A DNA stretch of 64,000 nt from Betaproteobacteria bacterium (GTDB lineage Bacteria; Pseudomonadota; Gammaproteobacteria; Burkholderiales; Burkholderiaceae_E), in the NCBI GenBank assembly GCA_043760705.1, contig JAYUOT010000001.1, positions 53,231-117,230 of the forward strand. Reading direction: 5' to 3'. The first letter of the stretch is position 1. The number at the start of each line of letters is the position of its first letter. Both the position numbers and the translations under genes were made by a program. A model generated the notes under the pieces. That model saw only the letters and a program-made list of their open reading frames with translations, was not told the DNA's origin and ran no database searches. Positions 8,822 to 54,090 of this stretch are shown here, piece by piece.

Positions 8822-10234
8822 CTAAACTTGGCGCTCCAAGCGCATTTTCAATCCGATGGGGGACATGACAAAGGCCATGAGTTCTCTGGCCTCTCCTCCA
8901 TCGGGCGTGTCCACCGCCTTGATTTGAAAGCTGCCCAGTAGCATGGCCATGGCGATTTTGATCTCTAAAATGGCCAGGTAGCGCCCGGGGCAAGTCCTTG
9001 GACCGGAGCCAAAAGGCATCGACACCCGGGCGTTTTCATTGGGCCATCGCTCGGGATTGAATTGCATCGGGTTGTGGAAGTATTTTTCGTCGACAGTGTC
9101 ATGGCGAAACGTATTCCAGACGATGGTGCCCGCGGGTACCCGGACCCCGGCGATGTCGGTGTCCTGGGTGGCCTCGAGGGGCATAAAGGGAGCGACCGGT
9201 TTAAGACGCATCGCTTCGCTAATGCAGGCATCCATGTAGTGAAGTGAGTCCATCTGCTCGATCGTGAAGCTCGCGCAGTCGGGCGCCAGGCGTCTGACCT
9301 CGTCGCTTGCTTTGGCGAGAGTGTCGGGGTTTTGATGGAGCAAGTAAATCATCCACGAGATGGTGTTGGCCGTGGTGTCTTCTCCTGCCAGGAGCATGGT
9401 CGACACATTGCCTGCCACGGCTTCGTCGTTGACGCCGCTCTGGGTAGAATCAGCCGCGACAATCATCGCTTCAAGCAAGTTGCCCGGTTTGGTGCGTCTT
9501 TCGGGCTCCGCTTGCAGGCGTGCGCGCGCCTTCAGAATTAAATCATCGACGGCCTCGCGCATGGATTTGACACTGTGGTCCAAACGCCGGTCTCGCGGGA
9601 GTTTGAAGTATCTCCAATACGGGAAAAGGGACAGACTGCGTCTCGCCACCGCTGGCAAGATATCGTCTAAATACTGTTGAATGACGTCGTCTCCCGACTC
9701 AAGCGTGTTGACCTCGGTACCGAAGGCGAGGCCTGCAATGATGTCGACGGTATAGCGCTTGAGATCCTTGTCGAGGTTAATGCTCTGAGCTTGCTCGGCG
9801 GCCGCAAGCCAACGCTTTTGCAGGCGATTGGCCACTTTGACCAGCGCGGGAAAGTAGGCCCGTATCGGACCCGGTGCAAAGCCGGCCATGACCATGCGCC
9901 GCTGGTTGCGCCACTCAACACCTTCGGCCAGAAATAGTCCCGGCGTGGCCCCCATTTCACGCGCAATAGCGGCCGACATGGACGGGCGCCGGAAACGCTC
10001 TGGGCGATCTTTCAATACCGATGAAATGAGTTGATGGTCGGTCAAAACGAGAATCGGGCGGCGTCCAAAAAAAACTCTAAAGACGCTACCGTAACGCTTC
10101 GCCAGGTTTTCAATGTCTTGATGAATGCGCAGGGGCTTGAGGCTGAGGACATTGCCGACCAGCGGCCAGGCTCTGGGGCCAGGAAGCTGTCGAATGTCGC
10201 GCAGGGGCGCTACTTGGATGGGTTCGGTGGTCAT
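8822..10234 (-). CDS. Cytochrome P450
   Basis: Haem-thiolate loop FGSGPRTCPGRYLA, ExxR (EAMR) and I-helix AGEDTT. Confidence 0.9.
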   Translation of the reverse strand: MTTEPIQVAPLRDIRQLPGPRAWPLVGNVLSLKPLRIHQDIENLAKRYGSVFRVFFGRRPILVLTDHQLISSVLKDRPERFRRPSMSAAIAREMGATPGLFLAEGVEWRNQRRMVMAGFAPGPIRAYFPALVKVANRLQKRWLAAAEQAQSINLDKDLKRYTVDIIAGLAFGTEVNTLESGDDVIQQYLDDILPAVARRSLSLFPYWRYFKLPRDRRLDHSVKSMREAVDDLILKARARLQAEPERRTKPGNLLEAMIVAADSTQSGVNDEAVAGNVSTMLLAGEDTTANTISWMIYLLHQNPDTLAKASDEVRRLAPDCASFTIEQMDSLHYMDACISEAMRLKPVAPFMPLEATQDTDIAGVRVPAGTIVWNTFRHDTVDEKYFHNPMQFNPERWPNENARVSMPFGSGPRTCPGRYLAILEIKIAMAMLLGSFQIKAVDTPDGGEARELMAFVMSPIGLKMRLERQV

Positions 10235-16980: not shown

Positions 16981-17154
16981 AAAAATGCCCGTCTTTGCAT
17001 GGCTTTGCAGTACCAGGCAGGTGATCCAAGCCTGATTGGGGTCAGCGTCCGCTTTGTAAAATATGTTAAATTATCCCATCGATTGATTTCTCGACGAACT
17101 TGGATTATGCGGACGATGGATCCTCGCTCGGCTATAATGATCGGGCGCTTTCAA

Positions 17155-17250
17155 TGGCGCATTCGCTAGGGGTGTTGCACCGTGTGGTGCATCTGAGAAA
17201 GTCCCTTTGAACCTGATTGAGTTAATGCTCGCGCAGGGAAGCCAGTCTGA
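17155..17250 (+). promoter_or_regulatory. TPP (THI-box) riboswitch
   Basis: GGGGTG (17169-17174), a P3 hairpin tgcacc/ggtgca, CTGAGA (17193-17198), CCCTTTGAACCTGAT (ACCTGAT at 17211-17217), TAATGC and GCGCAGGGAA (to 17240). Candidate P1 is attcgct (17161-17167) paired with agccagt (17240-17246). A perfect TATAAT sits at 17133-17138, upstream. Confidence 0.85.
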
Positions 17251-17305
17251 TGAACGCCCTCGTTCCCTCGCCAACTTCCCTAAGCTTTTGAACGGACATG
17301 GGACC

Positions 17306-18400
17306 ATGGCACCTGCAATTTCAGATCCCGAAGGGCTGATACCGACTTTGTTGGAGTTTTTGGCGCGCTCTGCCGTCAGCGATCAGGCGTTTAATCTTTT
17401 GGCGCTTCGCCTTTTTGCCTATCAGTTCAAACAGAATCTGGCCTATCAGCGTTTTTGTCAAAGGCGAGGCAAAACACCTCGGCTCGTAAAGCACTGGCAC
17501 GACATTCCGGCGGTGCCGATCAATGCCTTTAAAGATTTTACGCTCAGTTGTATTGCGCATCACGAGTGTGCGCGCGTGTTTATGACGAGCGGTACCACAC
17601 GCGGTGAAGTCAAGGGCCGAAATTTCCACCCGAGCCTTGAAGTTTATGACGCCTCGATGCGGAGTCACTTTCAGCCCAGTTTCATGCCAGACATTGAGCG
17701 CATTCGGATGGGGATTCTTTTTCCAACCGAGTCGATGTTGCCGAACTCATCCCTAGCGCATTACCTGGCGCTCGCCGTTGAACACTTTGGCTTATCCAAG
17801 AGTGCCTATTTCCTGAATGAGACGGGCTTGCAAGTCGATGCGCTTTGTACTGTGCTTGAGGAGGTACAAAGCAACGGTGAGCCGTTTGCCTTGCTGGGCG
17901 CCAGCTATGCGTTTGTGCATTTGTTCGATGCGCTCGACGAGCGCGGTGTGACCTACAAGCTGCCTGCCGGGAGTCGTATTCTCGATACCGGCGGGTTCAA
18001 GGGACAGTCCCGCGAAGTGCCTATGGAGGTCTTTTACGAGAAACTGTCCGCAACCTTCGGTGTAGAACGCAGGCATTGCATCAACATGTACGGCATGACT
18101 GAGCTGAGCACTCAATTCTATGACCTTGGCAATGAGACGATTCCCTCCGTCAAACGGGGGCCGCACTGGATTCGATCTCGCCTAGTCGACCCTCTCACGG
18201 GCCGGGACGTGGCCTTGGGCGAGCGCGGAATTCTTGCTCACACGGATCTCGCCAATTTTAATTCGGTCACCACGATCCTGACGGAGGATGTTGGCGTGGC
18301 GACTCAGGACGGTTTTGTACTGCTCGGGCGCGCGCAAGGCGTGGAGGCCAAGGGTTGCTCGATGGCCGTCGACGAATTCTTAAGATCGGCTTCGACATGA
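17306..18400 (+). CDS. LuxE-like acyl-protein synthetase (adenylating enzyme)
   Basis: LALRLFAYQFKQNLAYQRFC N-terminal region, MTSGTT, DTGGFKG, and LGRAQGVEAKGCS with a near-C-terminal Cys. The ORF track opens at 17207, but that lies inside the riboswitch aptamer. The first post-aptamer in-frame ATG is 17306. Confidence 0.75.
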   Translation: MAPAISDPEGLIPTLLEFLARSAVSDQAFNLLALRLFAYQFKQNLAYQRFCQRRGKTPRLVKHWHDIPAVPINAFKDFTLSCIAHHECARVFMTSGTTRGEVKGRNFHPSLEVYDASMRSHFQPSFMPDIERIRMGILFPTESMLPNSSLAHYLALAVEHFGLSKSAYFLNETGLQVDALCTVLEEVQSNGEPFALLGASYAFVHLFDALDERGVTYKLPAGSRILDTGGFKGQSREVPMEVFYEKLSATFGVERRHCINMYGMTELSTQFYDLGNETIPSVKRGPHWIRSRLVDPLTGRDVALGERGILAHTDLANFNSVTTILTEDVGVATQDGFVLLGRAQGVEAKGCSMAVDEFLRSAST

Positions 18401-19899
18401 CGTCGACTGCATTCAGAGCGGCTTATCTGCCGGGCGTACAGCCGGAAGAGGTCACCTGGCAGGCACTGGAGTTTCTGACGCCGGGCGTTGACGCTGGCGT
18501 CGGCACTTTACCTGGGTCAACCCTCAAGGTGGAGGTTCCTCAGCTGAGCCCGGCTCAGATGGTTGCTTTAGCGCACAGAGTACGCCAAGCCAGCCGCGCG
18601 CAGCTCAAAGAGATGACCGTATCAGACATCGTACGGGTGATTGATGCGGCAATCGCGCGCTTGCTTGATGTCCATGATGAGTATCGCAAGCTCCTGGAAG
18701 AGCTGTTGCCAAAGATTACTGGTTTTGATGAGGAGATGGTGCGTCTCGGGCTGAACGGCTTTCTGCTCTCGTTTCGAGCTCTGCAATTGCACCGCTTCGT
18801 GGCTGAGGATTTTGCGAATCCAAAAATCTTGGATGAATTTCAGCCGCAGACGAAACAAGGCTGGTCTAAAGCCCAGGGTGCAGATTTGACGGTCCATGTT
18901 TGGGCCGGTAATGTGCCGGCGCTACCGTTGTGGAGCATGGTGTCGGCGCTCCTGGTGAAAGCCGGTGTGATCGGAAAGGTGTCGAGTGCCGAGCCGGTAT
19001 TTGCAAGTCTTTTTGCTAGGCTTCTCGTTGAGATTGAACCGCGCTGGCGTGATTGCCTGGCCGTCGTATGGTGGAAGGGTGGCGAGGAGGACCTTGAGTC
19101 CTGTCTTTTTCCCCTGGCGGATGTGGTGCTTGCTTACGGAGGCACCTCCGCGCTCAATGGCATTCAATCGCGGGTCCCATCCTCAACACGCTTCCTGGCC
19201 TACGGCCATAAGATCAGCTTGAGTGTGGTGTCCAAGGCCGCGTTGACAACGCGAAAAGGGCAGGCCTGTGCGCGCTTGGCCGCACTGGATGTGGCGCGTT
19301 GGGATCAGCAGGGCTGCTATTCACCCCATGTCATTTATGTTCAAAGAGGCGCGGCGCTTTCACCCCTGGGCTTCGCGCAACTGCTCGCCGGCGAGTTGGC
19401 CTCACTCGAACCCAAAATGGCTCGACGCCTTTTGTCACTAGAAGAGGCGAGCCGCTTAGCGAACTGGCGTGAGTCGCATGAATTTAAAATGTTGAAGTCT
19501 TCAGCCGCCGCCCCGGCCCGTATCGTCTTGGGGGATCAAGGCCATGCCTGGTGCGTGGTCTATTCTGATGAGGCGATACCCCTCGAACCTGGCCCGCTGA
19601 ATCGAAGTGTATTGGTGGTCGCTGTGGATCGCTTGGAAGATGTCTGCGGTTTGATTCAATCGCAATCTGCTTTCCTGCAGACCGTAGGTTTGGCGGTTTC
19701 GCCTGAAGAATTGTTACCTTTTGCTGGGCGCTTAGGGCAGTTTGGTGCCACACGAATTTGCGCGCTTGGCGCAATGACCTCGCCTGAAGCTGGATGGCAT
19801 CACGACGGGCGATTCAGTTTGCTTGACTTGGTGCGCATGGTCGACGTTGAACACTCAGCCGAAGTACTCGCCGAGAACTTCACAAGTTATGAGTCCTGA
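18397..19899 (+). CDS. LuxC-like acyl-CoA/acyl-protein reductase (aldehyde-forming, ALDH superfamily)
   Basis: The ATGA overlaps the upstream stop. Length about 500 aa, candidate catalytic Cys in WDQQGCYSPH, and a layout typical of LuxC-family reductases. Confidence 0.75.
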   Translation: MTSTAFRAAYLPGVQPEEVTWQALEFLTPGVDAGVGTLPGSTLKVEVPQLSPAQMVALAHRVRQASRAQLKEMTVSDIVRVIDAAIARLLDVHDEYRKLLEELLPKITGFDEEMVRLGLNGFLLSFRALQLHRFVAEDFANPKILDEFQPQTKQGWSKAQGADLTVHVWAGNVPALPLWSMVSALLVKAGVIGKVSSAEPVFASLFARLLVEIEPRWRDCLAVVWWKGGEEDLESCLFPLADVVLAYGGTSALNGIQSRVPSSTRFLAYGHKISLSVVSKAALTTRKGQACARLAALDVARWDQQGCYSPHVIYVQRGAALSPLGFAQLLAGELASLEPKMARRLLSLEEASRLANWRESHEFKMLKSSAAAPARIVLGDQGHAWCVVYSDEAIPLEPGPLNRSVLVVAVDRLEDVCGLIQSQSAFLQTVGLAVSPEELLPFAGRLGQFGATRICALGAMTSPEAGWHHDGRFSLLDLVRMVDVEHSAEVLAENFTSYES

Positions 19900-20704
19900 G
19901 ATGAATCATTTTCTGGACATGCGGTCGGTCACTTACGGTTACGTCGACCAAGCAGCGGTGGTGAACAATGTCAGCCTGCAGATAGCTCCCGCCAGGATTC
20001 ACAGCCTGATTGGCCGGAGTGGCTGCGGCAAGAGCACCTTGCTCAAGTTGGCGGCCGGGCTACTCATGCCCCGCTTGGGGGAGGTTGTTTTTCAAGCTCA
20101 GGAGGTCACCGGTCCGCTGTCTGATATGGGGTATGTGTTCCAGTCGCCGACCTTACTCTCCTGGATCGACGTAATTCATAATGTCTTGCTGCCGATTTCG
20201 CTCCATCGTTCGGTGACCCCGGCGGATCGGGCGCGCGCCGAACAATTACTCGGGCAAATGGGGTTAACCGGCCTGGAGCGGCGTCTCCCGCAACATCTCT
20301 CGGGTGGACAGCAGAGCCGGGTGGCCATTGCTCGCGCCCTGATCGCTGCACCTCGTATTTTATTGATGGATGAGCCTTTCTCTGCACTCGATGCAATTAC
20401 GCGCGAGGAATTGCAGCACGACTTTTTAAGCCTGTGCCGGCACCAAGGGATGGCGGTGTTCTTTGTCACCCACGACATTGCCGAGGCCGTGTACTTAGGC
20501 GATACCGTGAGCGTCATGCGTGCGGGCCGCATGGTTCTCGATCGCCACAGCCATCTGGCTTTTCCGAGGCCACCCGGGATTCGATACAGCCCTGCCTTTA
20601 ATGCGCTGTGTGCTGAACTGCGCGAGGCGATGGAAGGCGAGGTGAGAGAGGGTGAGGCTAAAGATCACCAGGCCAACAAAGAGCAAAAAGTGGAGGCCGC
20701 TTGA
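19889..20704 (+). CDS. ABC transporter ATP-binding protein, NitT/TauT family (ThiZ-like)
   Basis: Walker A GRSGCGKST, signature LSGGQQ and Walker B LLMDEPFS. The alternative ATG at 19901 lies 2 nt after the luxC-like stop. Confidence 0.85.
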   Translation: MSPEMNHFLDMRSVTYGYVDQAAVVNNVSLQIAPARIHSLIGRSGCGKSTLLKLAAGLLMPRLGEVVFQAQEVTGPLSDMGYVFQSPTLLSWIDVIHNVLLPISLHRSVTPADRARAEQLLGQMGLTGLERRLPQHLSGGQQSRVAIARALIAAPRILLMDEPFSALDAITREELQHDFLSLCRHQGMAVFFVTHDIAEAVYLGDTVSVMRAGRMVLDRHSHLAFPRPPGIRYSPAFNALCAELREAMEGEVREGEAKDHQANKEQKVEAA

Positions 20705-21459
20705 TACGCCGCGACGATGCAGCCGCAGTCTTGCTCGGCCTCCTGTGCCTACTGGCCTGGGAAGTGATCGTCGCGCTGTTTCATCCCTCGCCTTTGGTTT
20801 TACCAGCTCCCTCGGTCATTGCAGCCTCACTTTGGAAAGGCCTCACCAGCGGATTTCTCTGGCCACACATTGTCTTGACGACGATCGAGGCCTTGTTAGG
20901 GCTGATGCTGGGCGCATGTATGGGCTTCATCGGTGGAGTGACGCTCGGTGAGTCGGCTAGCTTGCGCCGAATTTTCATGCCTTTTGTATTGGTGAGTCAG
21001 GTGATTCCAAAGTTGGCCCTGGCCCCCTTGTTTATCGTGTGGTTCGGCTTTGGCACCTTGCCGACGGTGATTATGACGGCGCTGATTTGTTTCTTTCCTT
21101 TGCTGGAGAACACGGCCACCGCCATGCAGCAAGTTGATCCTCAACGCCTTGAGTTGTTTCGCATGTTGCGGGCGAATTCGTGGCAGACACTATTACGCTT
21201 AAAAATCCCCTCGGGATTGCCGAGCATCATGGCCGGCTTTCGGGTGGCCGTGGTGCTTGCCTGGGTGGGTGCCGTCGTGGCCGAGTTTATCGGAGCCAGT
21301 CGTGGCCTGGGCGCCTTGATTATTGGGGCTCAAGGTTCGATGGATACCTCCCTGATGTTTGCCGTATTGGTGGTGATTACGGTGCTGGGTCTGGCGTCAT
21401 ATAAAGCGGCGCTATGGTTGGAACTGCGCATGTTGCGTGCGCAGTTTTTTGGGTTTTAG
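20701..21459 (+). CDS. ABC transporter permease, NitT/TauT family (ThiX-like)
   Basis: The TTG start overlaps the ATPase stop (TTGA). Six hydrophobic segments and an EAA-like loop (ENTATAMQQVDP...LRLKIPSGLPSIMAG). Confidence 0.85.
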   Translation: MIRRDDAAAVLLGLLCLLAWEVIVALFHPSPLVLPAPSVIAASLWKGLTSGFLWPHIVLTTIEALLGLMLGACMGFIGGVTLGESASLRRIFMPFVLVSQVIPKLALAPLFIVWFGFGTLPTVIMTALICFFPLLENTATAMQQVDPQRLELFRMLRANSWQTLLRLKIPSGLPSIMAGFRVAVVLAWVGAVVAEFIGASRGLGALIIGAQGSMDTSLMFAVLVVITVLGLASYKAALWLELRMLRAQFFGF

Positions 21460-21471
21460 AAGGGTTAAGCG

Positions 21472-22482
21472 ATGTTGAACAAGTTATGCCGAAGTTTTAT
21501 TGCGCCTGTTGTCCTTGGTCTATGGGCAATGCAAGCGCCCGGGCTTGCACAAGCGCAGTCTGCGCCCAAGGCAGATCGAGTGACTGTCGCGGGGTGGAGT
21601 AAACCGATCACCGAAATTACCAACTTGCTGGTGGAGGAACAGAAGGGATTCTTTAGAGCTAAGAGTATCGACTTTGCCTATGTGCCTGGCGCGGGTGGCG
21701 GTGATGCCTTGCGCAATTTGCTGAGCGGACAGGCTGATGTCGCGTTCACTGATCCAGGCTCGCTCTTTGCCGCACTCGACAAGGGTGAAAAGCTGCGAGT
21801 GATTTATGACATCTATCCGCAAAACGTGTTCAACGTGGTCTCACTCAAATCTAAAAACATTACCAAGCCCGCCGATTTGAAGGGCAAGCGCATTGGTGTC
21901 TACAGTCTAGCGAGCGGCACCCGACAAAATCTGCAAGTTCTCTTGCACCAGGCTGGCCTGACTGAAAGTGACGTCACGGTCGTCGTCACTGGCCTTTTGA
22001 ATTTTGCGCCTTTGATGCAGGGGCAGGTCGATGCCACCGCGGCAACGGACACCGGTTTGTTGGTGGGGCGCCAGCGCGGACTTGGCGAAGTCAATGTGAT
22101 GGAGGTTAAAAACCATCTGAATATCTCCAGTGATTTTTTTGTGGTTCGCGAAGAAACCTACCAGAAACGGAAGGACGTTCTGAAACGATTCTTGCAGGCC
22201 TATCAAGACAGCGCGGCCTGGATGATTCGAGCGCCTAATGAAGCCGCAACCCTGGCGATTAAATATGCGATTGATGGGCAAAATCCAGAAGTCAATATCG
22301 AGATCATCAAGCTGCGCAATCTATCGAGTGTCTCTAGTCTTACTCAAAAATCCGGGCTGGGTACGCTTGACGTGGAAGCCTTGCAAAGAGCCGCTCAAGC
22401 CTATAAGGCGATTGGTGTGCTTCAACGTGACATCAAGGTTTCTGAGCTCCTGGGGCAGGACCTTTTGCCGGGTAAGCGATGA
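21472..22482 (+). CDS. Periplasmic substrate-binding protein, NMT1/THI5-like (ThiY-like)
   Basis: Signal peptide ending AQA. GFFRAKSIDFAYVPGAGGGDALRNLLSGQADVAF is typical of SsuA/ThiY/NMT1-type binding proteins. Confidence 0.8.
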   Translation: MLNKLCRSFIAPVVLGLWAMQAPGLAQAQSAPKADRVTVAGWSKPITEITNLLVEEQKGFFRAKSIDFAYVPGAGGGDALRNLLSGQADVAFTDPGSLFAALDKGEKLRVIYDIYPQNVFNVVSLKSKNITKPADLKGKRIGVYSLASGTRQNLQVLLHQAGLTESDVTVVVTGLLNFAPLMQGQVDATAATDTGLLVGRQRGLGEVNVMEVKNHLNISSDFFVVREETYQKRKDVLKRFLQAYQDSAAWMIRAPNEAATLAIKYAIDGQNPEVNIEIIKLRNLSSVSSLTQKSGLGTLDVEALQRAAQAYKAIGVLQRDIKVSELLGQDLLPGKR

Positions 22483-23312
22483 ACGCCTTAAACCCCTCGA
22501 GCGGCGCGGCAAGCAAGAGCGAGCGCACAGTGCACAGGCTGCCCGGGAAGTTTGACGGCAAGGTGGTTTTGGTGACCGGTGCGAGTCGAGGCATCGGCGC
22601 GGCCATTGCCAAGGCGTTCGCGGCGGAAGGTGCGATGGTCTTGGTCAACTATCTTCGTAATAGCGTCGCCGCGAATGAGGTGGTTGCGCACTGTCAAGCT
22701 CTCGGTGGCGAGGCCTGGGCACTGCAAGCAGATGTACGCTCGCGCGAGGCTGTAGAGGCCATGGTGGCTGAGGCATTGAGTGAGGTGGGCCAGATCGATG
22801 TGTTGGTCAATAACGCCTTGAGTCCTTACGCGTTTGACCCCGAGCAGCGCCCGCGTTTTGGTGATATCCCCTGGGCCGCGTATCAAGAACAGTTTGAGGC
22901 TTCGGTGCAGGCCGCCTATCACACCTGTCAGGCTTTGCTCGAACACTTCAAGCGGCGCGGGCAAGGCAGTATTGTGAATTTGGTCAGTGACTTGGTCGAG
23001 CATCCCGTGATCGCTTATCACGACTACAGCACGGCAAAATCTGCCCTGGTCGGTTTTAGTCGCAACCTCGCCGCCGATCTAGGACCGCTCGGCATTCGGG
23101 TGAATTGCGTGGCGCCGGGCCTAGTGTTTCCGACAGAGTCTAGTCGTCACACCCAGGAGGCCGTCAAAGACGCGATTATTTCGCAAACCCCCTTGGGGCG
23201 AATTGCCAATCCAGACGATATCGCAGGACCCGTGTTGTTCCTGGCCTCGTCGTGGAGCCGCTTTATGACCGGTCAGGTACTGGTGGTTGACGGCGGCTTG
23301 GTGATGAAATGA
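22479..23312 (+). CDS. SDR family oxidoreductase (FabG-like)
   Basis: The ATGA overlaps the binding-protein stop. VLVTGASRGIG, NNAL and YSTAK motifs. Confidence 0.85.
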   Translation: MNALNPSSGAASKSERTVHRLPGKFDGKVVLVTGASRGIGAAIAKAFAAEGAMVLVNYLRNSVAANEVVAHCQALGGEAWALQADVRSREAVEAMVAEALSEVGQIDVLVNNALSPYAFDPEQRPRFGDIPWAAYQEQFEASVQAAYHTCQALLEHFKRRGQGSIVNLVSDLVEHPVIAYHDYSTAKSALVGFSRNLAADLGPLGIRVNCVAPGLVFPTESSRHTQEAVKDAIISQTPLGRIANPDDIAGPVLFLASSWSRFMTGQVLVVDGGLVMK

Positions 23313-24205
23313 AGCGGCATCGGAGCAAAGCCATGATTCAGGGGGCCATGGCCGTGGCCGGTGGTGATGTTGGCGCCGTGGCTGATCGCGCTCAGAATAA
23401 AGCTGCGTGCCAAGGAGATGGCTTCCTGGAGCGGATGCCCCAAGGCCAGATAAGCGGCAATCGCCGAGGACAAGGTGCAGCCGGTGCCGTGGACATTGCG
23501 GCTCGCGATGCGCACCGAGGACAAATGGACCGGTCGCGAATATCCCTGTCGCGAATATCCCGGTTTCGTAGGTCCCAAGCTAGAGTCGGTGGGGCTGGCT
23601 TGCGGCGGAGCCGCTTGCAGCAGCACATCCACGACCTCTTCGCCGACCAGGTGACCGCCCTTGAGCAACACGGCACGTGCACCCAGGTCCAAGAGATCTC
23701 GTGCCGCTTGATCCAGCTCATCGACAGCCGTAAGGTCTCTTCCCAAGAGAAGTCCTGCTTCGTCCAGATTCGGCGTGATCACACGGGCGCGAGGAAACAA
23801 CTCGCGCACCAGAATCTCAACGGTTTCTTGGGCGATCAGCGCATCACCACTGGTCGCGACCATGACCGGATCCAGCACAACGTTGGGCAGTCGGTAATGA
23901 TCGATCGCCCAGGCCACGACTTCGACGATGCCGGGTGCGTGCAACATGCCAATTTTGACCGCATCAACCCCAATGTCTTCCACGACGGCCTGAATTTGAG
24001 CCTTGAGAAATTCGGGTGGCACGGCGTGAATGCCGCGTACACCCAGGGTGTTTTGCGCCGTCAGTGCGGTGATCGCACTCATGCCATAGCATCCCAGGGC
24101 CGCAAAGGTTTTGAGATCGGCCTGGATGCCGGCACCGCCGCCACTATCAGAGCCTGCGATGGTCAGGACGCGTGCATAGCTAAGAGTTTTCCCCATGCCG
24201 GGCAT
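23273..24205 (-). CDS. thiD: Hydroxymethylpyrimidine / phosphomethylpyrimidine kinase
   Basis: VLTIAGSDSGGGAGIQADLKTF, TPNLDEAG and HGTGCTLSSAIA motifs. The ORF opens at 24394, but the ThiD domain begins just after the ATGs at 24205/24196. Confidence 0.85.
   Translation of the reverse strand: MPGMGKTLSYARVLTIAGSDSGGGAGIQADLKTFAALGCYGMSAITALTAQNTLGVRGIHAVPPEFLKAQIQAVVEDIGVDAVKIGMLHAPGIVEVVAWAIDHYRLPNVVLDPVMVATSGDALIAQETVEILVRELFPRARVITPNLDEAGLLLGRDLTAVDELDQAARDLLDLGARAVLLKGGHLVGEEVVDVLLQAAPPQASPTDSSLGPTKPGYSRQGYSRPVHLSSVRIASRNVHGTGCTLSSAIAAYLALGHPLQEAISLARSFILSAISHGANITTGHGHGPLNHGFAPMPLHFITKPPSTTST
23533..23562. repeat. 15-bp in-frame tandem repeat inside thiD (encodes GYSRQ-GYSRP)
   Basis: gtcgcgaatatccct / gtcgcgaatatcccg: two copies with one mismatch. 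Confidence 0.85.
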
Positions 24206-24234
24206 TATCCACAAATCAGCGAGGCGCTCGCCCA

Positions 24235-25347
24235 ATGAGCTCAAAACCCAAGAGTGCTGTGCTGGGCGCTGGCCTGATGGGTCGGCTACTGGCTCATCGC
24301 CTGGCCGAATTGGGGCATCAGGTTGAGGTGTTTGAGGCGCAGGGGCCGGACGCGCAAGGGGCCGCAGCAAGAGTCGCTGCGGCGATGCTTGCACCCTTGG
24401 CAGAATCGGCGATCACGGAATTCCCCGTGGTGCGTATGGGTCAACATTCATTGCTGCGCTGGCCGCAACTGATTGCGGGCCTTGCTGAGCCCGTGTTTTT
24501 TCAGCAGAACGGTACCTTGATCGTCTGGCATCGGCAGGATGCGGCGGAGGCGCGCCGCTTTGAGGAATGCCTCAAGCAAACCCAGCTTAAGCTCTCCGAT
24601 TTGCCTGCGCCGGCTCATCTTGTCGAAGCTTCACTCGCCGACCTCGAGCCCGCTCTCAGCGGCCGCTTTTCGCAGGCGCTCTACCTACCCGGCGAAGGTC
24701 AACTCGACAATCGCCAGTTGCTCGCCGCACTTTTACAAAGCTTGCAGCGGCAAGGTGTGACGCTGCACTGGCATAGCCCACGTTCCTTGGAAGATTTCCC
24801 GGTCTCTAGGGATCGTCATTCAAGAAAGGGCCCGGATGCTACTGATTTTGACTGGGTCTTTGATTGTCGAGGCTTGGGCGCTCGCGCTCAATGGCCCGCC
24901 TTGCGCGGGGTCCGTGGCGAGGTGATCCGGCTCTATGCGCCAGAGGTGACTTTGCAAAGACCCACCCGCTTGATTCACCCTCGTTACCCACTCTATATTG
25001 CGCCCAAAGAAAACCATGTGTTTGTGGTCGGTGCGACCGAAATTGAGAGTGATGATTTGTCACCTGCCAGTGTGCGCTCGACCCTTGAACTTTTGAGCGC
25101 TGCGTACACCGTTCACAGCGGTTTTGCCGAAGCGCGCATTTTGGAGATCGCGACCCAGGCTCGGCCGACCCTGCCTGATAATTTACCGGCCGTGCGTTGC
25201 CTGGACGAGCGTCGCCTGCAAATCAACGGACTGTATCGCCACGGCTTTCTCATCGCTCCGGCGCTGCTGGATGTGGTGCTGGAATGGGTGCAACATCAAA
25301 CAAAGATCCTGGCGGGTGCATTGGAGTTGAAATTTGAACATGACTGA
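24235..25347 (+). CDS. thiO: FAD-dependent glycine oxidase
   Basis: N-terminal dinucleotide fold AVLGAGLMGRLLAHRLAELGHQVEVFE, a DAO-family layout, and a position directly upstream of thiS-thiG. Confidence 0.8.
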   Translation: MSSKPKSAVLGAGLMGRLLAHRLAELGHQVEVFEAQGPDAQGAAARVAAAMLAPLAESAITEFPVVRMGQHSLLRWPQLIAGLAEPVFFQQNGTLIVWHRQDAAEARRFEECLKQTQLKLSDLPAPAHLVEASLADLEPALSGRFSQALYLPGEGQLDNRQLLAALLQSLQRQGVTLHWHSPRSLEDFPVSRDRHSRKGPDATDFDWVFDCRGLGARAQWPALRGVRGEVIRLYAPEVTLQRPTRLIHPRYPLYIAPKENHVFVVGATEIESDDLSPASVRSTLELLSAAYTVHSGFAEARILEIATQARPTLPDNLPAVRCLDERRLQINGLYRHGFLIAPALLDVVLEWVQHQTKILAGALELKFEHD

Positions 25348-25555
25348 TTCGTTAACACTGACCGTGCAGATCAATAAGCTGCCCTACGCCTTGCCGCAGA
25401 ATGCAACCCTGGCCGATGCGGTCGCTCTGGCAGGAGTCAAGCCGCCTTTTGCCGCCGCCGTAAACCTGCGCTTTGTGCCGCGAGGCACCTATGACCAGTG
25501 CAAACTTCAACCCAATGATCAGATCGAGCTGATTGCACCGATTACCGGAGGCTGA
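25340..25555 (+). CDS. thiS: Sulfur-carrier protein ThiS
   Basis: About 70 aa ending in ...APITGG, the C-terminal Gly-Gly. An alternative TTG start lies at 25334. Confidence 0.85.
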   Translation: MTDSLTLTVQINKLPYALPQNATLADAVALAGVKPPFAAAVNLRFVPRGTYDQCKLQPNDQIELIAPITGG

Positions 25556-25561
25556 CCGCGA

Positions 25562-26380
25562 ATGACTCAACACTCTCAACCTACCCTTAGTGCGGCACCA
25601 GACGGCATGATTTTGTACGGGCAGCACTTTGCCAGTCGTTTGCTGCTGGGCACCTCACGCTATCCCTCACCGGCCGTGTTGTTGAAAGCCATTGAACGGT
25701 CGCGCCCCGCCATGCTGACAGCTTCCTTACGACGTCAGTCGGCGCAGGGTGATGCCTCACAGAGCTTTTGGAATCTACTCAAGGAGTCCAAGGTACCCGT
25801 GCTGCCTAACACGGCTGGCTGCCATAGTATTCAAGAAGTGATCACCACCGCCGAAATGGCGCGCGAAGTCTTTGAAACCGACTGGATCAAGCTCGAGCTG
25901 ATCGGTGACGATTACAGTTTGCAGCCGGATATTCTTAATTTGCCTGAGGCCGCTGCTCTTCTGATCAAGGCCGGCTTCAAGGTCTTGCCCTATGCGACCG
26001 ACGATCTGGTGCTGTGTCGTCGCCTGGTCGATGTGGGTTGTCAAGCGGTCATGCCCTGGGCGGCTCCGATTGGCACGGGTAAAGGCCCGATCAATCCCTA
26101 TGCGCTACGCATGTTGCGTGAGCGTTTGGAAGTTCCGCTCATCGTGGACGCCGGTCTTGGATTGCCCTCGCACGCTTGCCAGGTGATGGAGTGGGGCTAC
26201 GATGCGGTCTTGCTCAATACGGCCGTGGCCCTGGCCCAAGACCCGGTCGCGATGGCGGGGGCTTTTGCCGACGCAGTCCAGGCCGGCCATGCTGCGTTTC
26301 GTGCGGGTGCCATGCAGGCCCAGGAAAGCGCTCAACCCAGTACGCCTGTGATGGGCACTCCTTTTTGGCATCAGTCATGA
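25562..26380 (+). CDS. thiG: Thiazole synthase
   Basis: VLPNTAGC, IKLELIGD, VMPWAAPIGTGKG and PLIVDAGLG motifs. Confidence 0.92.
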   Translation: MTQHSQPTLSAAPDGMILYGQHFASRLLLGTSRYPSPAVLLKAIERSRPAMLTASLRRQSAQGDASQSFWNLLKESKVPVLPNTAGCHSIQEVITTAEMAREVFETDWIKLELIGDDYSLQPDILNLPEAAALLIKAGFKVLPYATDDLVLCRRLVDVGCQAVMPWAAPIGTGKGPINPYALRMLRERLEVPLIVDAGLGLPSHACQVMEWGYDAVLLNTAVALAQDPVAMAGAFADAVQAGHAAFRAGAMQAQESAQPSTPVMGTPFWHQS

Positions 26381-27309
26381 AAGACCCAAATCAAATGAAC
26401 CCCTTAGACAGCTCGCAAGACCTTGCCGAAGCGATCGCTCGAACCCATGTGTCGATGCTGGCTGGGGATGCCAGGCCTTACGCGGATGCGGTTCAAGCGC
26501 AGGACCGGGGCCTGTCGCCTCAGGCGGCTGGCGTTGTGCAAGGCGCTCGCATGCTTGGCTTCGTCGAGCATGATGCTCAGTGTTTGAGTCAGGCCTGGCA
26601 GGCTCAGACGCTTAGAACCGGACAGTTCTCACTGCCAGCATGGCCGGACCATCCGCAAGACTTTGGAATGGTCCCCTGGCCGAGAAATAATGGCTTTCCG
26701 AGTTGTCCAACAGGCCTCGGGTTGTACGCCGTGCTGCCCGATGCCCAGTGGGTGGCGCGCATGGCGCAAGCGGGTGTGCCGACGCTGCAATTGCGGTTTA
26801 AGTCTGACGACCCTGAAGCTGTGAAGCGCGAGGTGCGTGCAGCCGTCAAGGCGGTACAGGGCACTCAGTCTTTACTTTTCATTAACGATCATTGGCAAAT
26901 CGCGATGGACGAGGGAGCCTACGGTGTACATCTCGGGCAGGAAGATATGGAGATCGCCCCCATCGAGACTCTTCGTGCTTCGGGCCTGCGCTTGGGCTTG
27001 AGCACCCATGGCTATGTCGAGATGTTGCGGGCCGAAGCGCATGGCCCCAGCTACCTGGCCCTCGGCGCGGTGTTCCCAACCACCTTGAAGCGCATGCAAA
27101 CGGCACCGCAAGGCACGGGCCGCCTAGCCGCCTATGCCAAGCTGTTGGCCGGCCGATCCCTGGTGGCCATAGGCGGCATTGATTTGGATCGGGTGCCGCT
27201 GGTGATGAAGTGCGGCGTCGGGTCCATTGCGGTGGTGCGTGCGATTACGGGAGCGAGCGATCCGGAAAAGAGTGCGGCGCAACTGACCGAATTAATGACA
27301 AGAGTTTAG
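26377..27309 (+). CDS. thiE: Thiamine-phosphate synthase with an N-terminal extension of about 100 aa
   Basis: The ATGA overlaps the thiG stop. The ThiE domain runs from about LGLYAVLPD (LQLRFKS, INDHWQIA, GVHLGQED, YLALGAVFPT, VAIGGI). Confidence 0.85.
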   Translation: MKDPNQMNPLDSSQDLAEAIARTHVSMLAGDARPYADAVQAQDRGLSPQAAGVVQGARMLGFVEHDAQCLSQAWQAQTLRTGQFSLPAWPDHPQDFGMVPWPRNNGFPSCPTGLGLYAVLPDAQWVARMAQAGVPTLQLRFKSDDPEAVKREVRAAVKAVQGTQSLLFINDHWQIAMDEGAYGVHLGQEDMEIAPIETLRASGLRLGLSTHGYVEMLRAEAHGPSYLALGAVFPTTLKRMQTAPQGTGRLAAYAKLLAGRSLVAIGGIDLDRVPLVMKCGVGSIAVVRAITGASDPEKSAAQLTELMTRV

Positions 27310-28565
27310 TCGTACTTCCTGGCGTCCTCAATGACTCTGCCGTCATTGGCTAATCCGCCAGGAGCGGTCCAGCGGACTTCTCCGCGTAGTTTGGTGACAT
27401 CGCGAATAGTATGGGTCACTTTCTCGGCAAGAGTGTCGGCCGCCGCGCCGCCCACCATGGCTTCAGCACTTTCGCAGTGAAGGGTCATCGCATCATTGGC
27501 CATCTCGCCCGAGACCACCAGTCTTGCCTTGCTGATTTGCGGATGGCGCTTGATGATCTCTGCGATTTGACCGGGATGCACAAACATGCCGCGCACCTTG
27601 GTGGTTTGATCGGCACGTCCCATCCAGCCCTTGATGCGAACATTGGTGCGACCGCAAGGCGAGGCGCCTGCCAGCACGGCGGAAAGATCGCCGGTGCCAA
27701 AACGAATCATGGGATAAGTCAGGTTGAAATTGGTAATTACTATCTCGCCCACTTCACCGTCCGGCACCGGATCGCCCGTGCCGGGGCGAACAATTTCGAG
27801 AATGCAATCCTCGTCGAGAATCATGCCCTCAACCGCCTCGGACTCGTAGGCCACCATGCCCAGTTCGGCCGTGCCGTACCACTGCAATACCGTCGGCACG
27901 CCATTGTCTTTGAACCAGGTTCGTAGGCTCGGCGGCAGGGCTTCAGCCGCACATAGGGCGCGCTTGAGTTGGCTAATGTCGAGTTGAAGCTCTTGCGCCT
28001 TTTCGATGATGATGCGCAGAAACGAAGGTGTGCCAACATAGGCATCCGGCTTCAGCGCTCGCACCACATCAATCTGCTGCTCAGTCTGGCCACTGCCTGC
28101 GGCGATGATGGAGCAACCCAGCTTTCTCGCGCCGGAGTCGACCATCCATGCACCCGGTGTCATGTGATAAGCAAAACAGTTCTGGAGAATATGCCCCTTG
28201 CGGATGCCCGCCGCGTGAAGCGCGCGAGCGGTGCGCCAAGGATCATCGCCCGTGGCCTCGGGCTCGAAGATCGGCCCAGGTGACATAAAGAGGCGAGCTA
28301 CGGCACCGGGCGATTCAGTATTAAGGCCGCCGAAAGGGGGCAGGGCTTCTTGCATTGCCTTAAGTTCGGGCTTGCGCAGCACGGGCAATTGAGCCAGAGC
28401 CTTGCGACTATTAATGTCCTGAGGCTTGATCGCAGCGAGCATCTTGCCCCAGGCAGGCGACTTGATTTGTGCATGGGCAATGTATTTGGGCAGTGCGTTA
28501 AACAGCTCGCCTTCGCGTTGTTCTGGTGTGCGGACTTCCTTGTCGTCGTAATACTGGCTCATCAA
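27306..28565 (-). CDS. Phenylacetate-CoA ligase (PaaK) family adenylating enzyme
   Basis: About 420 aa with a PaaK-like layout (YGTAELG, FGTGDLS, GRADQTTKVRGMFVHP). Confidence 0.8.
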   Translation of the reverse strand: MMSQYYDDKEVRTPEQREGELFNALPKYIAHAQIKSPAWGKMLAAIKPQDINSRKALAQLPVLRKPELKAMQEALPPFGGLNTESPGAVARLFMSPGPIFEPEATGDDPWRTARALHAAGIRKGHILQNCFAYHMTPGAWMVDSGARKLGCSIIAAGSGQTEQQIDVVRALKPDAYVGTPSFLRIIIEKAQELQLDISQLKRALCAAEALPPSLRTWFKDNGVPTVLQWYGTAELGMVAYESEAVEGMILDEDCILEIVRPGTGDPVPDGEVGEIVITNFNLTYPMIRFGTGDLSAVLAGASPCGRTNVRIKGWMGRADQTTKVRGMFVHPGQIAEIIKRHPQISKARLVVSGEMANDAMTLHCESAEAMVGGAAADTLAEKVTHTIRDVTKLRGEVRWTAPGGLANDGRVIEDARKYD

Positions 28566-51224: not shown

Positions 51225-54005
51225 ATGTTTACACCAAGAAACTTCAAAAGACTCACCCTAGGGCTGGCTACTTTTGCCACGAGCGCATTCCTTGCGAGCT
51301 CTCTGGCGATCGCGGCTCCCCCGGCCGGCACACCCATCGGTAACCAAGCGGCCGCGACTTATACGGACGCCTCGGCGGTGACCCGTACGGCAACCTCCAA
51401 CACGGTGACCACCATCGTGCAACAGGTGGCTGCCCTTACCCTGACCAACACCCAAACCAAGGTCGGAACACCCGGCTCACCGGTAACGTTCTCTCACACC
51501 TTGACCAATACCGGTAACGGTACCGATACCTTTACGGTAGGCGTCGCCAATACCAGTGGTCTCACGCTTTCGTCATTGGTGATCTACCCCGACGCGAATT
51601 GCGACGGTGTTGCCGATAACACCACCGCCATCACCACGGTTGGTCCGCTGGCCTCAGGCGCAAACTTCTGCGTGGTTGTTCAAGGCACTGTACCGGGTTC
51701 CGCAACTGCGGGCCAAACCTCCTCGGTCACTTTGACAGCGGCCAGCCAATTCACACCAGCAGTAACGGTCAATAACGTCGATACAGTGAATGTGACCGGA
51801 AATGCCGTGGTGAACATCTCCAAGGGTATTAGCCTACCCAGTGGCAACCCAGGCAGTGGCCCCTACACTTACACCATCACCTACTCCAACACGGGTAACG
51901 CGACAGCGACCAACGTCGTCATCGCTGACGTGGTTCCAGCGGGGATGGTTTACCTCGGTGGAAGTGCACGTTGGAGCGGCTCAGGCGTCACAGCGTTGTC
52001 CGACGGTGCTGCTCCCGCAGATCCCGCAGGGATCAACTACGATATGGGCGTCACCACGGTGGGCGCGATGACTGCTGTCATCGCTGCGGTACCGGCGGCA
52101 AACTCTGGCACCTTGACTTTTCAGGTCAATGTGGCAGCGAACGCCGCTCCGACCACCATCAATAACATTGCCAAGCTTTGTTATAACGATGGCGTGGCGC
52201 AAGTGCCGTTGGGATGTACACCGGCTAATGCAACGGCCACTGGAAGTTCGTCGAATACCGCTCCCTTCGCTGTGAACCAAATTGCAGCAGTGAACGGTAA
52301 TGGTTCGGCCACGGACAGTGTGGTCACTACGGATCCCGCTGCGATTGCCTCCGCGACTCAAGGTTCGACTGTCTCGTTCAACAACTATGTGTGGAACCGT
52401 GGAAACGGCTCAGATAGCTTTGACATGACCGTGCCCACCGCTGGCTCGGCTGGAAATAATTTCCCGGCCGGAACCACCTTCCAACTGTTCAAGTCCAACG
52501 GTACCACCCCGCTGGTGGACACCAATGGCAATGGCACCGTGGACACTGGCCTGATCCCGGCGACTAACGATGCGACTTGTACTCCAGCGAATGGCTTTGT
52601 CGCTGATACGGTCAACGCTCGATGCGGTTACTTGGTGGTGTTGAAGGCCACCTTGCCGGCTGGCGCAGTAGGGGGTCCTTTCGCGGCGACCAAGACTGCC
52701 ACGTCGAAACTGAACCCGCTCATTTCAGATGGTATTACTGACAGTCTGTCCCTGATCACCAGCAGCACGGTGGACTTGCGTAACGGTGTGGCCAATACTG
52801 CCGGTACGGGTATCGGTCCAGAAGGCTCGCCTGTCACCACTCAGTCGGTCAATCCTGGTGCCACAACAAACTTTGTTTTGAAAGTCAATAACACCAGCGG
52901 CGTATCCGACACTTACAACCTCACAGCCAGTACCGACAGCAGCTTTGGCACAGTCGTCTTGCCAGCAGGGTGGGCAGTAACCTTCCGTACCGATGGCGGT
53001 GCAGGCGATTGCTCAAGTCTGGGTTCGGCGATCACCAATACAGGTTTGGTCTTAGCCGGTGCGAACTTCACAGCCTGCGCCGTGGTGAGCGTACCGGCCG
53101 GTGCGGCTGCCTTGCCAGCACCTGGTCTGAACTTGTACTTCCGTGCCATGTCACCGACGACCGGTGCACTGGACCGTAAGACCGACGCGGTCATTGTCAA
53201 CACTTTGCGCAGCCTCAGTATCAGCCCGAACAACACGGGTCAGGTGTTTCCAGGCGGTTCAGTGGTTTACACGCATCAAGTGACCAACAACGGTAACGTG
53301 ACGGAGGGCGCCACCCTGGGCCAAGTCGCATTGACCGATGCACTGAGCGGTGCCACGTCCGGTTGGAGCGTGATCATTTATTGGGATAAGAACAACGACG
53401 GCATTCTCGATGTGAATGACCCCGTTGTGTCAGACCTCTCCCAGTTGACGGGTGGAACTGCAGGCGCCTCAAGCGCTGCTGGTTTGGACGCTGGTGAAAC
53501 GGCCCGCTTGTTTGTCAAGATCATCGCCCCTGCTTCGGCAGCCTTGGGTGCGGTCGATACAAGCTCGCTGACGGTGACCACGACCGGTGCGGTAAATGGC
53601 GCGGCGGCTCCTGCCGCGGTCACTGCAACCGACACCACCACCGTGATTGCTGGCCAGGTTCGCTTGGTGAAAGAGCAAGCCCTGGATGCAAACTGTGACG
53701 GCACACCGGAGACCGCCTTTACCCAGTCAAACATCGTTGCTGGCGCAGTGCCTGGTGCCTGTATTCGCTACCGTATCACTGGTACGAACGATGGCACTGC
53801 ATCGGTCTCAGGACTGATCATTTCGGACTCGACCCCTGCCGCGACGGTCTACAACAACGGTGCCGGTACGGCGCCTGCTGCGACCACCGTAGGCACGATC
53901 ACCGCGCCTATCAACGGTACTTCAGGCTCGGTGCAGGCTACGGTGGGCAATCTTGCTCCTCTGGCGACCGTAGTGGTGAGCTTCGGTGTGCGGATTAACC
54001 CTTAA
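51225..54005 (+). CDS. Large secreted multi-DUF11-repeat protein
   Basis: Signal peptide ending AIA. Several repeats of the type VTFSHTLTNTGNGTDTF / YTYTITYSNTGNATATNVVIADVVPAGMVY. Thr/Ala/Gly/Val-rich. Confidence 0.75.
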   Translation: MFTPRNFKRLTLGLATFATSAFLASSLAIAAPPAGTPIGNQAAATYTDASAVTRTATSNTVTTIVQQVAALTLTNTQTKVGTPGSPVTFSHTLTNTGNGTDTFTVGVANTSGLTLSSLVIYPDANCDGVADNTTAITTVGPLASGANFCVVVQGTVPGSATAGQTSSVTLTAASQFTPAVTVNNVDTVNVTGNAVVNISKGISLPSGNPGSGPYTYTITYSNTGNATATNVVIADVVPAGMVYLGGSARWSGSGVTALSDGAAPADPAGINYDMGVTTVGAMTAVIAAVPAANSGTLTFQVNVAANAAPTTINNIAKLCYNDGVAQVPLGCTPANATATGSSSNTAPFAVNQIAAVNGNGSATDSVVTTDPAAIASATQGSTVSFNNYVWNRGNGSDSFDMTVPTAGSAGNNFPAGTTFQLFKSNGTTPLVDTNGNGTVDTGLIPATNDATCTPANGFVADTVNARCGYLVVLKATLPAGAVGGPFAATKTATSKLNPLISDGITDSLSLITSSTVDLRNGVANTAGTGIGPEGSPVTTQSVNPGATTNFVLKVNNTSGVSDTYNLTASTDSSFGTVVLPAGWAVTFRTDGGAGDCSSLGSAITNTGLVLAGANFTACAVVSVPAGAAALPAPGLNLYFRAMSPTTGALDRKTDAVIVNTLRSLSISPNNTGQVFPGGSVVYTHQVTNNGNVTEGATLGQVALTDALSGATSGWSVIIYWDKNNDGILDVNDPVVSDLSQLTGGTAGASSAAGLDAGETARLFVKIIAPASAALGAVDTSSLTVTTTGAVNGAAAPAAVTATDTTTVIAGQVRLVKEQALDANCDGTPETAFTQSNIVAGAVPGACIRYRITGTNDGTASVSGLIISDSTPAATVYNNGAGTAPAATTVGTITAPINGTSGSVQATVGNLAPLATVVVSFGVRINP

Positions 54006-54022
54006 CTTGCATCGTACCCAGC

Positions 54023-54068
54023 GGCTCGCCCCAAAAAGAAGCGAGCCCTGGGTGTTTCGGTTCCCAGG
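54023..54068 (+). other. Two adjacent short hairpins between the DUF11 gene and the giant OMP gene
   Basis: ggctcgc (54023-54029) pairs with gcgagcc (54041-54047), and cctggg (54047-54052) with cccagg (54063-54068). No T-run follows. Confidence 0.4.
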
Positions 54069-54090
54069 TTCGAAAAAAGAAAAATAGGCC

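Follow-up and report, generated by a model that had tools for sequence, protein, structure and literature searches.

We have found that a thiamin pyrophosphate (TPP) riboswitch stands in front of a six-gene operon with an unusual set of products in a 64,000-nt stretch of contig JAYUOT010000001.1 from a Betaproteobacteria bacterium (the whole stretch is called the window, and positions are counted in it). The operon encodes a LuxE-like adenylating enzyme, a LuxC-like reductase, the three components of an ATP-binding cassette (ABC) importer and a short-chain dehydrogenase/reductase (SDR). The aptamer occupies positions 17158-17256 of the plus strand, and its identity is close to certain. The riboswitch is an ordinary member of its family, RF00059; the interesting part is the cargo, which is non-canonical in enzymology yet clearly tied to thiamin and seems to be a hitherto undescribed TPP-regulated module of broad phylogenetic range. 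Judging from sequence and gene context, we give an even chance to the explanation that this is a TPP-repressed operon for import and reduction of an oxidized thiamin fragment, most likely pyrimidine carboxylic acid (PCA), which would be converted to hydroxymethylpyrimidine (HMP).

The search of the window with cmscan against Rfam 15 produced a single curated-RNA match at gathering level. It was the match to RF00059, which spans the full model (1-105) with 64.4 bits (gathering score 54.3, E-value 2.5e-10). The initial annotation had proposed a TPP riboswitch here, with a score below the gathering threshold as its refutation test; the score lies above it. All the conserved THI blocks quoted there were present in order and aligned to the Rfam consensus (GGGGUG, CUGAGA, ACCUGAU and GCAGGGAA), and the P3 hairpin and the P4/P5 arm came out of the Rfam alignment as proposed. 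The proposed P1, AUUCGCU/AGCCAGU, is plausible but weaker than was implied: its core in the Rfam alignment is UCGCU/AGCCA, which can be extended to seven positions, one of them a C-C mismatch and another a U-G pair, and across close relatives it is solid for the three inner pairs only. The optional P3a is deleted in the window aptamer. The parts of the aptamer are as follows.

17158-17256, plus strand: TPP riboswitch aptamer (RF00059), from the Rfam score and from covariation across aptamers linked to the same operon in other genomes
17161-17167 with 17240-17246, plus strand: P1, AUUCGCU/AGCCAGU
17168-17171 and 17173 with 17200 and 17203-17206, plus strand: P2, AGGG..U with A..CCCU (Rfam alignment)
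17174-17193, plus strand: P3, with the hairpin UGCACC/GGUGCA at 17176-17181 and 17186-17191 (Rfam alignment)
17193-17198, plus strand: CUGAGA block
17212-17237, plus strand: P4/P5 arm, P4 being CCUG/CAGG and P5 UGAG/CUCG (Rfam alignment)

Covariation was assessed in 46 aptamers linked to the six-gene set (below, the cassette) with a fixed-offset alignment; when the 5′ offsets were unequal, MAFFT brought the two aptamer types out of register. The window aptamer belongs to the minority type, ACCUGA...CAGGGA, while the majority of cassette riboswitches are of the type ACUUGA...UAAGGA; between the two, a C-G pair of P4 is changed to U-A with compensation, and P5 swaps G-C for C-G and A-U for G-C. 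Because of a 1-nt indel between the types at the P2-P4 junction, P2 was excluded from the pair count. For P1, P4 and P5 together, 85.5% of cells were paired, in comparison with 33-47% when the 3′ partners were slid by 1-3 columns. Changes on both sides were seen in 11 of the 15 pairs of these helices, and none of 500 shuffles reached the observed covariation score. P3 covaries among related leaders.

To see how widely the arrangement is conserved we used a search with a profile built from LuxE-like homologues, which gave at least 372 species-level genomes. The best 80 loci (59-89% identity) were analysed; gene order was determined by tblastn with the window proteins, 64 of the 80 loci being long enough to judge, and the element was sought with a THI-box regular expression and, in 25 loci, with Rfam. 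Most of the 80 loci belong to Comamonadaceae (Limnohabitans, Polaromonas, Variovorax, Ramlibacter, Rhodoferax, Curvibacter and Hylemonella); the set also includes Alcaligenaceae (Bordetella trematum, Achromobacter and Pollutimonas), Rhodospirillales and other alphaproteobacterial metagenome-assembled genomes (MAGs), Geobacillus thermodenitrificans and a MAG labelled Ectobacillus sp. All six genes were observed in the same order in 62 of the 64 assessable loci. In the two exceptions, from Achromobacter (L036 12576-12661) and Alcaligenaceae (L067 12588-12649), only the ABC ATPase gene is missing, between luxC and the permease gene.

A THI-box was present upstream on the same strand in 73 of the 80 loci with a relaxed pattern, and about 75 loci have the element overall. 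The pattern was relaxed because the strict expression caught only ∼18 loci, the ACUUGA...UAAGGA variant being prevalent. Elsewhere in 1.3 Mb, both strands counted, the relaxed pattern gave two matches, one of which precedes thiO in Ramlibacter paludis (L060 19153-19236, minus strand). RF00059 was matched at gathering level in all 11 motif-positive loci submitted, as well as upstream of the cassettes in Peribacillus asahii and Desulforamulus aeronauticus, 13 of 13 in total; the confirmed loci include Comamonadaceae, Alcaligenaceae, Rhodospirillales, Bacillaceae and Desulforamulus, thus four bacterial classes. The same six-gene cassettes of P. asahii and D. aeronauticus were found in a search with the Geobacillus SDR, in which the matches listed, with at least 72% identity, all seem to belong to cassettes; the two that were checked do.

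Some loci could be judged only in part: the element is cut by the contig end in L065, the contig ends inside thiD in L057, and L015 has only 186 nt of upstream sequence. In L007 (∼9440-9590) an insertion of ∼57 nt with the hairpin AUGCGGC...GCCGCAU is located between the 5′ strand of P4 and P5, and the element does not reach the Rfam gathering score; either the switch may have decayed or the insertion may be tolerated.

The cassette or its SDR gene is plasmid-borne in two cases, Variovorax sp. WS11 (L062, plasmid pVarWS11_2) and Priestia megaterium (P0133), and the cassette of P. asahii (L081 10308-13699) is flanked by an IS110 transposase and a TnpB-like gene. Together with the LuxE identity of 61% between Geobacillus and the window betaproteobacterium, this suggests horizontal spread.

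In the window, the luxE-like gene opens an operon (17306-23312) in which genes overlap or are spaced by no more than 13 nt; convergent to it, and overlapping the 3′-end of the SDR gene, is thiD, with further thi genes behind.

17306-18400, plus strand: LuxE-like acyl-protein synthetase/adenylating enzyme, 364 aa (PF04443)
18397-19899, plus strand: LuxC-like acyl (thioester) reductase (PF05893); its start overlaps the luxE stop in ATGA
19901-20704, plus strand, start at 19889 or 19901: ABC transporter ATPase (PF00005 108 bits)
20701-21459, plus strand: ABC permease, SsuC/TauC/SaoP-like (PF00528 105 bits)
21472-22482, plus strand: periplasmic NMT1/THI5-type binding protein of the ThiY superfamily, with signal peptide (PF09084 165 bits)
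22479-23312, plus strand: FabG-like SDR, the last operon gene (PF13561 200 bits)
23273-24205, minus strand: thiD, HMP/HMP phosphate kinase, start uncertain, open reading frame (ORF) to 24394 (PF08543 302 bits, TIGR00097 309 bits)
24235-25347, plus strand: thiO (TIGR02352 259 bits)
25334-25555, plus strand: thiS, an ORF whose product ends in GG
25562-26380, plus strand: thiG (PF05690 331 bits)
26377-27309, plus strand: thiE (PF02581 151 bits)

The six genes are very probably the regulon of the riboswitch. The statement of the initial annotation that the cargo is not thiC, thiM, tenA or a transporter is true of the first gene, which is of the LuxE family as it had said; the operon behind this gene does include an ABC importer. 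The genes thiD and thiO point away from each other, their likely starts being ∼30 nt apart; the Rfam scan found no TPP riboswitch for thiOSGE within the window, and there is no thiC among its larger ORFs. The cluster has every step to thiamin phosphate except a source of HMP. An ORF antisense to thiD (23309-24238, plus strand, 309 aa) has no Pfam match and is almost certainly a shadow ORF. Directly after thiE, on the minus strand, a PaaK-like adenylate-forming ligase is encoded (27306-28565), adjoined by genes of a branched-chain-type ABC transporter (to 32032) with no link to the riboswitch.

Genes for thiamin metabolism were observed next to the cassette in other genomes as well. In 16 loci (Ramlibacter, Caenimonas and relatives) thiD is placed between the riboswitch and luxE, and in 11 it is convergent; thiE directly follows the cassette in 10 loci and thiO in 13. 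Two Limnohabitans loci (L004 8680-9981 and L008) have a gene for a CytX-like putative HMP permease (TIGR02358 239 bits, under the cutoff of 310) placed after the riboswitch and before luxE. Where the cassette adjoins no thi gene, its neighbours are housekeeping genes with no relation to it; in loci without thiD the downstream genes are likewise unrelated (TsaD, NusG, PLD, DUF302), and two unannotated 200-aa neighbour proteins showed no homology to each other.

The leader between the promoter and the first gene allows us to propose how the switch may act. The TATAAT that the initial annotation had placed ∼22 nt upstream of the aptamer was read directly, 22 nt before P1, and the positions T-A-x-A-x-T are kept in 9 of 10 related leaders. 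A consensus scan found no full sigma-70 promoter, since a good -35 box is missing. The ORF-track start of the luxE-like gene was rightly questioned: this start, TTG 17207, is within the aptamer, and so is ATG 17225, the start implied by the sole identical public protein (P0001, 391 aa), which falls in the P5 loop. Close LuxE-like homologues have 364 aa and cover the query from its residue 1, and an (A/G)UGGC start is aligned at 17306 among related leaders. From these comparisons, ATG 17306 is read as the real start; therefore the database annotation is ∼27 residues too long. The elements of the leader are listed below.

17133-17138, plus strand: probable -10 box, TATAAT
17247-17310, plus strand: expression platform (ViennaRNA with the aptamer enforced; RNAalifold on related leaders)
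17252-17256 with 17261-17265, plus strand: platform hairpin GAACG/CGUUC
17270-17273, plus strand: GCCA box
17275-17281, plus strand: CUUCCCU box
17300-17303, plus strand: GGGA
17306-17310, plus strand: start AUGGC

With the aptamer pairs enforced in ViennaRNA, a proxy for the TPP-bound state, GCCA (17270-17273) pairs with UGGC (17307-17310), UCCC (17277-17280) pairs with GGGA, and the GAACG/CGUUC hairpin forms; in combination, these pairings hide the start codon. The GCC(A/G)-UGGC helix was recovered independently by RNAalifold in 11 related leaders, with some two-sided changes. In the unconstrained fold, CUUCCCU pairs instead with AGGGAAG (17235-17241), the 3′ strand of P4/P1, and at the equivalent place related leaders have CCUGC, complementary to GCAGG. 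The box can therefore be an anti-aptamer or a sequester. From these folds we infer that regulation probably proceeds by translational masking of the start codon. With TPP bound, the aptamer would lock its own 3′ strand (GCAGGGAAGC) and free the GCCA and UUCCC boxes downstream; at the start codon these would form pairs with GGGA and AUGGC and so block initiation of translation, while without TPP the CUUCCCU box could pair with the aptamer 3′ strand. Under plentiful TPP the riboswitch would thus turn off the six-gene operon.

Transcription attenuation was considered for the window switch and rejected, as the scan found no terminator between aptamer and start codon and terminator-like sites only within the luxE coding region. 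Bacillaceae cassette riboswitches, on the other hand, end in a clear GC terminator hairpin followed by a T-run, the usual architecture of Gram-positive riboswitches; therefore, independent lineages employ the element as a switch.

These data also bear on the possibility that RF00059 here matches a THI-like sequence that has decayed or arisen by chance and regulates nothing. The weak P1 with its mismatch and the missing -35 box would agree with it, but the score and E-value, the element kept with its covariation upstream of orthologous operons in four classes, and the conserved pairing of the box with the start codon make it exceedingly improbable. The element precedes the orthologous cassette in ∼75 of 80 other genomes and its base changes are compensatory, which is more than chance.

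What the enzymes of the operon may do was judged from their families. The LuxE-like protein exceeds the Pfam threshold of PF04443 (72.1 bits versus 24.9) and its sole relative in the PDB is LuxE (7xc6_E, E-value 1.6e-17); it scores 67.6 bits with the LuxE equivalog NF052244, which has a cutoff of 550. Likewise, the LuxC-like protein has 298 bits with PF05893 (threshold 21), 112.4 bits with the LuxC equivalog NF052251 (cutoff 750) and LuxC (7xc6_A, E-value 5.2e-21) as the sole PDB relative. As the scores are far under the equivalog cutoffs, these genes form a separate clade and are not luminescence genes. In 21 aligned LuxE-like homologues the adenylation motifs TSGTTRG and YGMTE are invariant, and so is Cys351 (in KGCS, 14 residues before the C terminus); the acylated Cys of LuxE is ∼10 residues from the C-terminal end. 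The motif DQQGCYS of the LuxC-like protein aligns with DQQACFS of 7xc6_A, with conservation of the Cys, which we take to be catalytic. In the established Lux chemistry, LuxE and LuxC take a carboxylate through acyl-AMP and thioester to an aldehyde.

[quoted passage not shown] Given the context, this product name is probably wrong for the cassette SDRs.

The transporter subunits resemble the sulfonate/taurine/nitrate family, an anion-carrying family of importers that also contains ThiXYZ; the best NCBIfam matches of the ATPase were taurine, sulfonate and nitrate ATPases. The binding protein has the N-terminal signal sequence ...GLAQAQ, read directly. Its best relative in the PDB is 3qsl, an uncharacterized Bordetella protein, followed by 4nmy, 2x7p, THI5/THI13 (4h6d) and the formylaminopyrimidine-binding ThiY (3ix1). 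A THI element followed by ABC genes that include one for a binding protein of NMT1/THI5 fold is the ThiXYZ-type arrangement, which Rodionov is said to have reported in 2002 and which is reportedly classical. THI5-like de novo synthesis of HMP was considered for the NMT1 protein and rejected because of its signal peptide and ABC partners.

In this context a role in thiamin-related uptake or salvage is highly probable. Reductive salvage of an acid to an alcohol is, in our estimate, an evenly balanced proposition, and PCA as the specific substrate a tentative one. Among the known products of oxidation are PCA, 4-methylthiazole-5-acetic acid and thiamin acetic acid, all three without a known fate (PMC11223231). 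The same paper, by Oliveira-Filho, Rodionov and Hanson (2024, PMC11223231), deals with OarX, an SDR linked to TPP riboswitches since 2002; reduction after activation was proposed there as a salvage logic, OarX reducing activated carboxyl derivatives of thiamin moieties. We infer the following reactions from the protein families of the cassette. The ABC system would import an oxidized, carboxylated thiamin fragment; LuxE would activate the carboxylate with ATP and carry the product as a thioester; LuxC would reduce the thioester to the aldehyde, and the SDR would reduce the aldehyde to the alcohol. With PCA as the substrate, reduction via 5-formyl pyrimidine would give HMP, to be phosphorylated by the adjacent ThiD and coupled by ThiE to the thiazole made by ThiOSG.

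Four points favour conversion of PCA to HMP: thiD and CytX-like genes share a transcript with the cassette; the binding protein belongs to the ThiY/THI5 superfamily; among the neighbours scanned, thiM adjoined none of the cassettes; and the cassette with thiD and thiOSGE would supply all for thiamin phosphate except a source of HMP. An alternative is another substrate for the same switch and chemistry, with 4-methylthiazole-5-acetic acid reduced to hydroxyethylthiazole (HET) or thiamin acetic acid to thiamin. These acids are the chief oxidation products known, substrates are not told apart by the enzyme families, and the neighbours thiE and thiOSG are equally compatible with thiazole and pyrimidine metabolism. 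Still, the absence of thiM, the HET kinase, beside the cassettes scanned, the position of thiD and CytX-like genes on the riboswitch-controlled transcript, the pyrimidine-binding superfamily of the binding protein and the de novo thiazole synthesis encoded in the window make such a substrate rather improbable.

[quoted passage not shown] The classical placement of such importers behind THI elements and the unproven LuxE/LuxC substrate agree with this, as do the negative results of OarX tests with the obvious acids in Corynebacterium glutamicum (PMC11223231). We consider it unlikely, though, since 62 of 64 loci across phyla have luxE, luxC and the SDR gene together with the transporter genes, luxE invariably comes first of the cassette genes behind the switch, the enzymes are retained in two loci without the ATPase, and the known salvage of FAMP or aminopyrimidine needs a deformylase and TenA rather than a reductase.

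A number of observations weigh against a TPP-repressed operon for reductive salvage of PCA. C. glutamicum did not salvage PCA or four other oxidation products (PMC11223231); for the strain used, the paper mentions neither LuxE/LuxC nor an ABC importer (PMC11223231). The kinship of the LuxE-like and LuxC-like proteins with the luminescence enzymes is no more than distant, so that the sequence does not tell the size of the substrate. The binding protein bears only a remote likeness to ThiY (E-value 3.9e-4 with 3ix1) and scores better against sulfonate-binding families. Most loci have no thi gene adjoining the cassette. In two alphaproteobacterial MAGs, L064 (9640-10000) and L075 (4190-4520), the cassette is truly without a TPP riboswitch: the upstream gene ends ∼100 nt before luxE, with a promoter-like box, TTGACTTGCAA, between them; the L064 cassette is full, and the L075 contig ends within the permease gene. 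As to regulation, the Shine-Dalgarno sequence at the luxE-like start is weak, and in the unconstrained fold GGGA is paired elsewhere and the start site is not clearly freed. The ON state is thus not cleanly predicted, and translational control was therefore rated as probable.

Full-text literature searches found no publication on the cassette, the OarX paper being the only relevant one returned and the OarX problem the nearest published one; subscription journals, RegPrecise and SEED were mostly outside their coverage. We see somewhat less than an even chance that the cassette is an unrecognized, widespread, TPP-regulated pathway that imports and reduces oxidized thiamin fragments (PCA, thiazole or thiamin acetic acids). 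If so, it would be the first metabolic fate for orphan degradation products of vitamin B1 and a non-luminescence role for LuxC/LuxE homologues, and it would probably answer the OarX puzzle, open for 20 years. The cassette would supply the activation and reduction steps absent from the published salvage hypothesis. The cargo of a riboswitch is among the most reliable pointers to gene function, and here a TPP riboswitch marks a six-gene module, with enzymes that have no assigned role, in at least 372 species-level genomes. Its hosts include freshwater Comamonadaceae (Limnohabitans, Polaromonas), soil Variovorax and Ramlibacter, Bordetella, Achromobacter and Bacillaceae; G. thermodenitrificans DSM 465, P. 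asahii and Variovorax are culturable hosts. The cassette also bears on how vitamin B1 is cycled in aquatic microbial communities, in which many bacterioplankton cannot make it (PMC10881298).

Elsewhere in the window, a response-regulator/Hpt gene and an EAL gene lie upstream of the operon and divergent to it, and two adjoining ORFs at 51225-60699 (926 and 2202 aa, with DUF11 and SdrD_B repeats) probably encode surface or adhesin-like proteins.

In comparison with known systems, the switch is closest in design to those TPP riboswitches that act in Gram-negative bacteria as thiM-type translational OFF switches. It shares with them the P1-P5 architecture, the CUGAGA and ACCUGAU...GCG blocks, and a downstream box that is predicted to be able to pair with the aptamer 3′ strand or else with the start region; it differs in the lack of P3a and in a short P1. 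The cargo departs from the classical thi regulon in having a LuxE-like adenylating enzyme first, then a LuxC-like reductase and an SDR. Like ThiXYZ, the importer is an ABC system of NitT/TauT type with three components, has a binding protein of NMT1/THI5 fold and stands behind a TPP riboswitch (ThiY binds FAMP, 3ix1), but its operon is always one with the LuxE/LuxC/SDR enzymes, not one with tenA or ylmB.

The only solved relative of both Lux-like proteins, the LuxC-LuxE fatty acid reductase of luminous bacteria (7xc6), is similar in the Cys of the LuxC motif, the adenylation motifs, the C-terminal Cys and the adjoining, translationally coupled genes. The cassette, however, has neither luxAB nor luxD and scores far below the equivalog cutoffs, and given the thiamin context its substrate is probably a small heteroaromatic acid and not myristate. 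The proposed logic of ATP activation, thioester formation and NADPH reduction to an aldehyde, then to an alcohol, is common to carboxylic acid reductases working with aldehyde reductases; a carboxylic acid reductase is a single multidomain enzyme with phosphopantetheine, while the cassette has two separate Lux-type proteins with predicted cysteine acyl carriers. Finally, the cassette SDR resembles OarX, compared by context only, in being a FabG-like SDR downstream of a TPP riboswitch and in a cluster with thiD, thiE and thiOSG. The published contexts of OarX are fmnO, thiM, thiV, ykoCDE and occasionally an acyl-CoA synthetase, with no mention of the LuxC or the ABC importer that the cassette possesses (PMC11223231).

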